The notes under the pieces were generated by a model, which had not been told where the DNA came from, searched no databases, and worked only from the letters and a program-made list of their open reading frames with translations. The position numbers and the translations under genes were made by a program. This document shows, in pieces, positions 3,846 through 4,028 of a stretch of DNA of 5,481 nt; position 1 is the first letter of the stretch; each line of letters starts with the position of its first letter. This stretch comes from a virus (taxonomy: Duplodnaviria > Heunggongvirae > Uroviricota > Caudoviricetes), in IMG/VR virus record IMGVR_UViG_2728369593_000014, positions 1-5,481 of that record, one strand, 5' to 3'.

Positions 3846-4028
3846 CTACGAAATGAGAGGCTCTTCGGGTTTTGTTCCGGCTGACTGGCTGGCGCTGATT
3901 TTTTCCGCCGCCGCGGCATCAATCTTTTTGCGTATATAGTTCCGGATAACCTTATACCCGCCACTTACCAGATATAACGTGCACACCACCGTGCAGAAAT
4001 ACAATAAAATAAGCTGTACAAATCTCAT
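3846..4028 (-). CDS. Small membrane protein (60 aa): N-terminal TM helix and basic cytoplasmic tail
   Basis: ATG at 4028..4026 preceded by a very strong SD (GGGAGGG, 4-nt spacer); product MRFVQLILLYFCTVVCTLYLVSGGYKVIRNYIRKKIDAAAAEKISASQSAGTKPEEPLIS. Lies between gene A and gene B in the same orientation. Confidence 0.55.
   Translation of the reverse strand: MRFVQLILLYFCTVVCTLYLVSGGYKVIRNYIRKKIDAAAAEKISASQSAGTKPEEPLIS

Follow-up and report, generated by a model that had tools for sequence, protein, structure and literature searches.

A short open reading frame (ORF) lies on the minus strand at positions 3846..4028 of the DNA analysed here, a stretch of 5,481 nucleotides (nt) that covers positions 1 to 5,481 of the IMG/VR virus record IMGVR_UViG_2728369593_000014 (Caudoviricetes) and is referred to as the window. 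The ORF is intact and runs from the ATG at 4028-4026 to the TAG at 3848-3846, the stop codon being included in the range. A first-pass annotation had described it as the gene for a single-pass membrane protein inside a late operon, without stating its strand. The encoded protein of 60 amino acids (aa), MRFVQLILLYFCTVVCTLYLVSGGYKVIRNYIRKKIDAAAAEKISASQSAGTKPEEPLIS, matches the Pfam family PF07125 (DUF1378) with 135.7 bits (E 5.8e-40), residues 1-59 being aligned with positions 1-59 of the 59 in the profile. The score is above the gathering threshold of the family (25 bits), and the match extends over the whole ~59-residue profile. The ORF also matches PHROG 494 ("unknown function"), RefSeq places a "DUF1378 family protein" at the same position in NZ_CP106929, and near-identical Escherichia coli chromosomes carry the annotated gene. 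Judging from these matches, the ORF is a member of an already catalogued family whose function has no published assignment. Its earlier treatment as an unknown ORF does not hold, since RefSeq annotates the family in a fifth of complete E. coli genomes. No published function for DUF1378 was found in the literature searched, in which PF07125 and phrog_494 are likewise not mentioned, and searches by locus tag (ECs1208, Z1467, L0106, and ECs1209) returned unrelated papers only.

The DUF1378 gene and its predicted product

The start codon is preceded by the Shine-Dalgarno (SD) sequence GGGAGGG at 4038-4032 (4032..4038, minus strand), as the first-pass annotation had noted. The order is GGGAGGG, ATA, and ATG, so that 3 nt separate GGGAGGG, and 4 nt its GGAGG core, from the ATG. 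The duplex energy with the anti-SD sequence is -10.8 kcal/mol, which ranks third among the 165 candidate starts of window ORFs of at least 30 aa and second among the starts annotated in the near-identical record L001, where a 43-aa ORF at 1105-974 is ahead. The site is thus strong, but it is not the strongest in the window as had been proposed. The SD sequence is not conserved either; the same place is occupied by the weaker purine-rich sequences GGAGAT or GGTAAG/GGAAAG in other alleles. This stronger SD and an arginine at position 2 are the only features in which the window allele differs from other DUF1378 members.

A transmembrane (TM) helix, FVQLILLYFCTVVCTLYLVS, is predicted at codons 3-22 (3963..4022, minus strand) from the Kyte-Doolittle hydropathy, the invariant residues, and an AlphaFold2 model. 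The hydropathy maximum over 19 residues is 2.28 (residues 3-21), and the helix ends at an SGGY motif (codons 22-25) that is invariant in the family. A basic juxtamembrane helix, YKVIRNYIRKKIDAAAAEK, follows at codons 25-43 (3900..3956, minus strand) and is predicted to be cytoplasmic, with five Lys or Arg residues in the 15 residues after the TM helix. Codons 44-60 (3849-3899, minus strand) form a variable, disordered tail. An N-terminal TM helix followed by a Lys/Arg-rich tail had already been recognized by the first reading. The AlphaFold2 model gives a single helix at residues 2-49 with a disordered end. The mean predicted local distance difference test score (pLDDT) is 68, and the values fall below 50 at residues 53-57.

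The distribution of charges around the helix should be noted, since it bears on the topology. Across 186 members of the family, the number of Lys and Arg residues per member averages 0.04 in the N-terminal flank of the helix and 5.0 in the C-terminal flank (15 residues). Arg2 of the window allele is unusual in this respect, a Lys or Arg residue before the helix being found in only 7 of the 186 members. By the positive-inside rule, this charge asymmetry suggests an N-out/C-in topology. The protein would thus have a periplasmic N-terminus of two residues and a stable TM helix at residues 3-22, followed on the cytoplasmic side by a basic helix and then by a short disordered tail.

Other assignments for the N-terminal region were considered. 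A membrane anchor is preferred to a cleavable signal peptide, judging from the length of the hydrophobic stretch (19-20 residues), the almost always uncharged N-flank, and the Lys and Arg residues directly after the stretch. A lipoprotein or outer-membrane spanin was rejected, because the motif is LYFC and not the lipobox [LVI][ASTVI][GAS]C, and C12 is replaced by Ser, Ala, or Gly in many members. The cassettes with DUF1378 already have Rz1 or LysC bearing a proper lipobox. Among solved structures, TRAP-gamma alone was matched, and marginally (E 0.002), a similarity that was taken as a reflection of transmembrane composition.

The conservation of the gene was examined with 24 distinct alleles recovered from 80 IMG/VR loci and two genomes. 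All 24 keep the DUF1378 frame open, whereas the other five frames are open in none. Variable sites are distributed over the three codon positions as 34, 24, and 51 of 60, respectively. The median pairwise ratio of nonsynonymous to synonymous substitutions (dN/dS, Nei-Gojobori) is 0.15, with saturation at the synonymous sites. The alleles share the core M-T-F-x5-LLYFC-x2-V-x2-LYL-x-SGGY-x3-R, while the last ~15 residues are variable and of low complexity. In the family alignment, L9, F11, V15, L18, L20, S22, G23, G24, and Y25 are invariant, as is R29. The window protein has every invariant column and conforms to the core M-x-F-x5-LLYF-x3-V-x2-L-Y-L-x-SGGY-x3-R. Twenty-two canonical IMG/VR loci of intact prophages carry an identical copy, and E. 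coli O157:H7 prophages encode proteins with 100% identity to it.

DUF1378 is therefore a real gene under purifying selection. The decay of the surrounding prophage could be taken as a sign that the ORF is spurious or dead and has no function, but this is scarcely credible for the window copy in view of the full-length Pfam match, the dN/dS of ~0.15, the predominance of third-position variation, the 24/24 alleles open in the DUF1378 frame only, and the identical sequence in the 22 loci of intact prophages. For the family, the spurious-ORF explanation is refuted. The profile match, the dN/dS ratio, and the conservation of the frame in related prophages all agree with the earlier description of a predicted single-pass membrane gene in a late operon. 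An overlapping 115-aa ORF at 3964-3617 (vb_24B_24 in phage 24B) was rejected as an artefact, because the conserved frame is that of DUF1378 alone; the true start of the DUF826 gene in this region is the ATG at 3808.

Among 5426 complete E. coli genomes, at least 1054 carry the nucleotide sequence of DUF1378, with a median of three and up to ten copies. The sequence is also found in 309 phage records, almost all of them Shiga toxin (Stx)-converting or other lambdoid coliphages. A hidden Markov model scan of 1.84 billion representative proteins gave 38 DUF1378 clusters only. The named sources of the relatives are all Enterobacterales (Escherichia, Shigella, Citrobacter, Enterobacter, Cedecea, Pantoea, Erwinia, and Mangrovibacter), and a collection with one genome per species contained a single DUF1378 locus, in Cedecea neteri. 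A homologue is also found in a phage record labelled Stenotrophomonas (BUCT709). The lysis cassette of this record (L084; OM816835, vB_SmeS_BUCT709; 2721-4153) looks enterobacterial, and the stated host may deserve checking.

Gene order around DUF1378 in other phages

The position of DUF1378 relative to lysis genes was compared among these phages. Of the 82 loci from E. coli, Shigella, and IMG/VR, 70+ have nanS-p followed by DUF1378, DUF826, pinholin S, R, and Rz, an order that is referred to as the Stx type. Here nanS-p is separated from DUF1378 by ~150 nt, DUF1378 from DUF826 by 40 nt, and DUF826 from pinholin S by ~190 nt. In every Stx-type locus, DUF826 starts at +220 relative to the ATG of DUF1378, and DUF1378 lies ~390 nt upstream of S in Stx phages. 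The same order is found in Citrobacter.

A different arrangement is observed in other lambdoid phages. The cassette of BUCT709 consists of a P21-type pinholin, a 933W-like lysozyme of the signal-anchor-release (SAR) type, Rz/Rz1, and DUF1378; that of Pantoea At-9b of holin_3_1, GH19, DUF7940, DUF2570, and DUF1378; and that of locus L091 of Q, a holin, a lysozyme, DUF7940, a spanin, and DUF1378. DUF1378 is likewise the last cistron of the lysis cassette in locus L089, Mangrovibacter, and Pantoea cypripedii. In five of these six non-Stx cases, the ATG of DUF1378 overlaps the upstream stop codon by 4 nt (ATGA), and in the overlapping cases (5/6) a GGAG/GGAA SD sequence lies inside the spanin gene. 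Twelve further IMG/VR loci belong to a long-tailed subfamily; DUF1378 directly follows the spanin genes in 11 of them, with the 4-nt overlap in nine. The long Ala/Glu/Lys tails of members from outside E. coli were considered as possible fused DUF826 domains, but BLASTP gave no match.

A DUF7940 gene (68-87 aa) is found between the endolysin and inner-membrane spanin genes in three cassettes that end with DUF1378 (L086, 4261-4467; L091, 4271-4477; L089, 4186-4449). DUF7940 is not mentioned in the literature searched.

Taken together, DUF1378 lies inside or directly beside a lysis cassette in about 20 independent phage contexts. The cassettes themselves vary: the holin belongs to Phage_holin_2_1 or Phage_holin_3_1, and the endolysin is a lysozyme, GH19, or a muramidase. 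The link to lysis genes persists across these holin and endolysin types, indicating that DUF1378 does not hitch-hike with a single cassette. This linkage by gene order is what the present analysis adds to an already known family. If DUF1378 is an extra lysis component, as suggested below, the spanin-coupled arrangement would be the likely ancestral one, and the gene would have been relocated to the site just upstream of the pinholin gene in Stx phages. The repeated placement in lysis cassettes with different partners, together with the translational coupling to the spanin gene, leads us to propose that DUF1378 is a late-expressed inner-membrane lysis protein.

The adjacency could alternatively reflect insertion hot spots, DUF1378 being a moron-like cargo gene with a task other than lysis, such as superinfection exclusion at DNA entry (HK97 gp15/YebO-type) or modulation of a host membrane protein (AcrZ, MgtS). 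We regard this main rival to a lysis role as possible but rather unlikely. The gene occupies three classic moron sites, namely the Q-S interval with stx and nanS-p, the position after Rz, and the position after a tail-fibre assembly gene, the last adjoining acyltransferase_3 or Dam methylase. It occurs in up to ten copies per genome, the window allele has the strongest SD sequence of the family, and the gene has stayed intact in the window despite the decay of nanS-p, DUF826, and the endolysin gene described below, although the survival of a 183-nt gene in a decayed prophage may be due to chance. On the other hand, neither a promoter of its own on the coding strand nor a terminator after DUF1378 was detected. 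The protein has no match to YebO, other families, or PADLOC defence models (nothing below E 0.02). Furthermore, the start codon overlaps the spanin stop codon in most non-Stx lineages, suggesting that DUF1378 is a cistron of the lysis operon and not an autonomous unit.

Surroundings of the gene in the window and the divergent unit

Along the minus strand, which is the strand of the late operon, the order is a DUF1737 fragment with DUF6645, then a 147-nt spacer, DUF1378, a 37-nt gap, and DUF826 joined to a second DUF6645 3' fragment. Two small RNA (sRNA) modules on the plus strand, the P21-type pinholin gene S, an inserted plus-strand ORF, and a 933W-type endolysin gene come next, and then two small membrane-protein ORFs, Rz, and the end of an insertion sequence (IS) element.

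The gene upstream of DUF1378 is an internally deleted pseudogene of the sialate O-acetylesterase nanS-p (4176..5059, minus strand), identified from the Pfam domains DUF1737 and DUF6645 and from RefSeq pseudogenes. The remnant keeps the DUF1737 N-terminus and the DUF6645 C-terminus but has lost the SASA esterase domain, while an intact nanS-p (~2 kb) is present in 60+ related loci. On the other side, the DUF826 gene (3656..3808, minus strand; Pfam PF05696, E 1e-26, profile positions 1-57 of 75; RefSeq pseudogene "missing C-terminus") is truncated. It is cut after codon 52 (...LDELLGG) and joined to roughly the last third of a second nanS-p gene (3617-3808 / 3334-3708, minus strand); the intact form in locus L004 has 89 aa. 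The joined piece, the second DUF6645 3' fragment or gene A of the first-pass annotation (3334..3669, minus strand; Pfam DUF6645 profile positions 44-115; RefSeq pseudogene "missing N-terminus"), is a recombination scar, which among the 82 loci is found only in L001 and L009 besides the window. The scar and the internal deletion of the first nanS-p suggest recombination between two prophage copies. The position of DUF1378 between the paralogous genes A and B is thus as had been described, but these are not functional paralogues, both being DUF6645 pseudogene fragments of nanS-p.

The first gene of the downstream lysis cassette is the P21-type class II holin gene, pinholin S (2682..2888, minus strand; Phage_holin_2_1, E 3.2e-32; RefSeq "class II holin family protein"). 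The 933W-type SAR endolysin gene (1459-1994, minus strand) is frameshifted. Compared with the near-identical L001 and NZ_CP106929, it has two extra bases near codons 7-9 (ATGAACGAAAAAATAAAATAACGGACC versus ...AAAATACGGCC), so that it reads MNEKIK followed by a stop, and the remaining ORF of 138 aa has no SAR domain. Either prophage decay or a sequencing error could account for this. As it stands, the prophage in the window is decayed, with nanS-p, DUF826, and the endolysin gene broken and DUF1378 intact.

Several further ORFs were observed around the cassette. Two minus-strand ORFs for small membrane proteins lie between the endolysin gene and Rz, one of 60 aa (1302-1120, PHROG 1115) and one of 43 aa (1105-974, PHROG 4906). 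With GGGAGGA, the latter has the best SD sequence of the annotated window genes, and there is an overlap between its TGA and a GTG at the 5' end of the Rz frame. Both are candidates for further accessory components of lysis cassettes. S and R, which are normally adjacent, are parted by an insert at 2030-2680. The insert contains a plus-strand ORF of 104 aa (2112-2426) that matches only the C-terminal two-thirds of the PHROG 1853 profile and has no Pfam hit; RefSeq gives a shorter hypothetical protein. The right end of the window (5297-5481, plus strand) holds the start of iraM, encoding an anti-adaptor for RssB, just upstream of the nanS-p remnant and on the opposite strand. At the left end (1-285, plus strand), the 3' end of a transposase gene from an IS element replaces the sequence at that place in NZ_CP106929.

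A divergent small transcription unit, module 3, is predicted on the plus strand at 4055..4170 from sequence and fold, and DUF1378 does lie opposite this promoter module as reported earlier. It consists of TTGACA (4055-4060), a 17-nt spacer, TTAAAA (4078-4083), a body of ~80 nt, and a terminator (4123-4170) with the stem 4123-4130/4155-4162 and the T-run 4164-4170. The calculated folding energy is -26.6 kcal/mol (z -3.65 for the single sequence). The unit lies about 20-150 nt upstream of the DUF1378 ATG, and a unit of the same build is kept in all 33 distinct nanS-p/DUF1378 spacers, judging from visual inspection and alignment. The terminator stems come in two versions, GCCGCCGG or CCGCCAGC. 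RNAalifold applied to eight alleles misaligned these two terminator classes and gave no consensus structure.

The window contains two other plus-strand modules, both antisense to the late operon. Module 1 (3040-3200) is 90% identical to the esterase-holin spacer of prophage PP2 in E2348/69, and in its 3' half it agrees with the PasA sequence given in the supplement to PMC8550237, by which module 1 is identified as the PasA sRNA gene. Module 2 (3200-3340) corresponds to the adjacent unit of the PP2 spacer with 98% identity. PasA is a trans-acting, Hfq-dependent sRNA (PMC8550237). The DUF6645 fragment has at its 3' end (~3345-3380, minus strand), read as the reverse complement, the sequence GATAGAAAGTCTGGTGCTGGAGATAAATGCA, which coincides exactly with the PasA target site of E2348C_1246 (esterase 3' end) found by RNA interaction by ligation and sequencing (RIL-seq), as listed in the same supplement; PasA and the site are ~200 nt apart in the window. 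Rfam has no family for any of the three modules; modules 1 and 2 are absent from Rfam 15, and at the corresponding place in six related loci no Rfam family was found, the only hits being STnc100, AgvB, and tRNAs, all upstream of nanS-p. BLAST gave no match between module 3 and the PasA/PasC spacers. Module 3 has the same build as these modules and may be an undescribed relative of the Pas sRNAs.

The RNA from module 3 would have full complementarity to the part of the late transcript that connects nanS-p with DUF1378. Such a layout raises the question of whether DUF1378 is a type I membrane toxin (Hok-, TisB-, or ZorO-like) with the module 3 RNA as an antitoxin pairing with a long 5' leader. 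In its favour, the small, hydrophobic protein bears a charged tail, and a conserved divergent unit of promoter, body, and terminator lies upstream of it in every Stx-type locus, in an arrangement reminiscent of tisB/istR-1 or zorO/orzO. We nevertheless find this highly unlikely. The module 3 RNA overlaps neither the SD sequence nor the ORF. There is no spacer, and hence no such RNA, where DUF1378 follows a spanin gene; the overlap of its start with the spanin stop codon in most lineages leaves no room for an antisense partner. Modules of similar build flank the holin gene, and one of them is PasA, which acts in trans (PMC8550237). No promoter specific to DUF1378 was found, and the protein has no Pfam or NCBIfam match to Hok/Gef, Ldr, Ibs, TisB, ShoB, ZorO, or DinQ. 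By analogy, the lack of toxicity of the overproduced LambdaSo protein Lcc6, compared with DUF1378 below, would also argue against a toxin. The earlier suggestion of a small toxin or immunity peptide accordingly finds no backing, as neither Hok and other type I toxins nor PADLOC models are matched. Module 3 is probably a neighbour and not part of the function of the DUF1378 protein.

Proposed role and comparison with known small membrane proteins

DUF1378 may be an accessory inner-membrane lysis factor, a proposal to which we give somewhat less than an even chance. The protein would be made together with the holin, endolysin, and spanin from the Q-antiterminated late transcript. It would not be the holin itself but would adjust the timing or the efficiency of the holin step or of endolysin release. 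The late expression and the role in lysis are inferred, and the effect could be either pro- or anti-lysis. Prophage PP2 of E2348/69 should be noted here, since its esterase gene is followed directly by the holin gene and DUF1378 is absent. DUF1378 is therefore not essential for lysis by pinholin and SAR endolysin in general, and this dispensability is the reason for proposing that the protein modulates triggering or release and does not belong to the core of the system.

Several observations weigh against this proposal. Besides the absence of the gene from PP2, the S-R-Rz cassette of phage 21 is sufficient for cell lysis. The sites of DUF1378, between Q and S, after Rz, and after tail-fibre genes, are classic moron insertion sites, and the last of these sites, next to cargo genes and far from the lysis genes, is where DUF1378 is found behind the tail-fibre assembly gene in Mu-like prophages of Enterobacter, Erwinia tracheiphila, and Cedecea. 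Pfam scans give no holin family for DUF1378. Only one paper found names the family, and it gives no more than the place of the gene in Stx2a phages, between nanS-p and S (PMC10462455). Since the endolysin gene in the window is frameshifted, any lysis role is moot for this particular prophage. The differences from Mu gp25 given below count on the same side.

A narrower version of the lysis-factor proposal is that DUF1378 is a second holin or a dedicated antiholin pairing with pinholin S. Of the traits of the holin class, small size, at least one TM helix, and a charged hydrophilic C-terminus are present, whereas membership of a recognized holin family is absent. The location ~390 nt upstream of S in Stx phages and the precedent of one-helix N-out/C-in helper genes, such as LysF1b, would also fit. 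However, a holin candidate is already present in every cassette examined, and no holin family of Pfam is matched. Holins of at least two families unrelated to each other, Phage_holin_2_1 and Phage_holin_3_1, accompany DUF1378, which argues against a holin-specific partner. We consider this version improbable. As to the holin/antiholin-like architecture put forward by the first-pass annotation, the roughly 20 lysis-cassette contexts fit it while the absence of a holin family match does not; the lead was reasonable and is unproven.

With more reserve than for an accessory role as such, we suggest that DUF1378 might be an unrecognized, widespread extra component of the lysis cassettes of lambdoid Enterobacterales phages, bitopic and spanin-coupled, that sets lysis timing, burst size, and the timing of Shiga toxin release. 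As a sequence feature, the gene is unremarkable, since it is annotated and its family, though of unknown function, is a known one. All Stx-converting phages examined nevertheless carry it in the interval that separates the toxin/esterase region from the holin gene, and lysis timing governs the amounts of Shiga toxin and phage freed by an induced enterohemorrhagic E. coli cell. The gene-order evidence turns DUF1378 from a family of unknown function into a specific lysis hypothesis that can be tested cheaply.

Known small membrane proteins were compared with DUF1378. The type I toxins (Hok/Gef, TisB, and ZorO) and the exclusion proteins of the HK97 gp15/YebO type are, like DUF1378, small single-pass inner-membrane proteins of prophages. 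They show no family match with it, and DUF1378 differs in being coupled to spanin genes elsewhere.

The releasin gp25 of phage Mu is an N-out/C-in protein encoded downstream of the spanins (PMC9239132). Both gp25 (DUF2730, PF10805) and, by prediction, DUF1378 have an N-terminal TM helix, few periplasmic residues, and a cytoplasmic helical tail. Both are late genes, co-occur with several endolysin types, and lie downstream of spanin genes in related phages; DUF1378 does so in ~18 relatives that are not of the Stx type, while it is upstream of the holin gene in the window and in Stx phages. Homology between the two was rejected, as the hhalign probability is 0.2% and DUF2730 is absent from the Pfam scans (E up to 1). 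The tails also differ, gp25 (99 aa) having an anionic tail of 73 aa and DUF1378 a tail of 38 aa that is basic near the membrane. Moreover, Mu has no holin, whereas the phages with DUF1378 do.

Lcc6 (SO_4795) of LambdaSo is closer in size and layout. It has 65 aa with a TM helix at 5-22 and a cytoplasmic tail of 43 aa, and it is required at the pinholin step (bioRxiv 10.1101/2024.01.23.576932). Compared by description, DUF1378 is nearly equal, with 60 aa, a TM helix at 3-22, and a tail of 38 aa. Lcc6 works in a system of pinholin, SAR endolysin, and Rz-Rz1, and the window has a pinholin, a 933W-type lysozyme, and Rz. Lcc6 differs in that it is encoded far from the lysis genes, near int/xis, in Shewanella, whereas the named hosts of DUF1378 are Enterobacterales.

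LysF1b of cluster F1 mycobacteriophages has one N-terminal TM helix in an N-out/C-in orientation. Its gene lies in the lysis cassette next to that of a holin-like protein with two helices, and it is required for efficient and timely lysis (PMC13056207). The likeness to DUF1378 is one of description, since LysF1b belongs to an unrelated family and acts in a Gram-positive-like host. Mu gp25, LambdaSo Lcc6, and LysF1b together show that small N-out/C-in membrane proteins can be essential yet overlooked lysis factors. If the proposed role is true, DUF1378 would be the third, unrelated family of the emerging "releasin/Lcc6-like" lysis cofactors.

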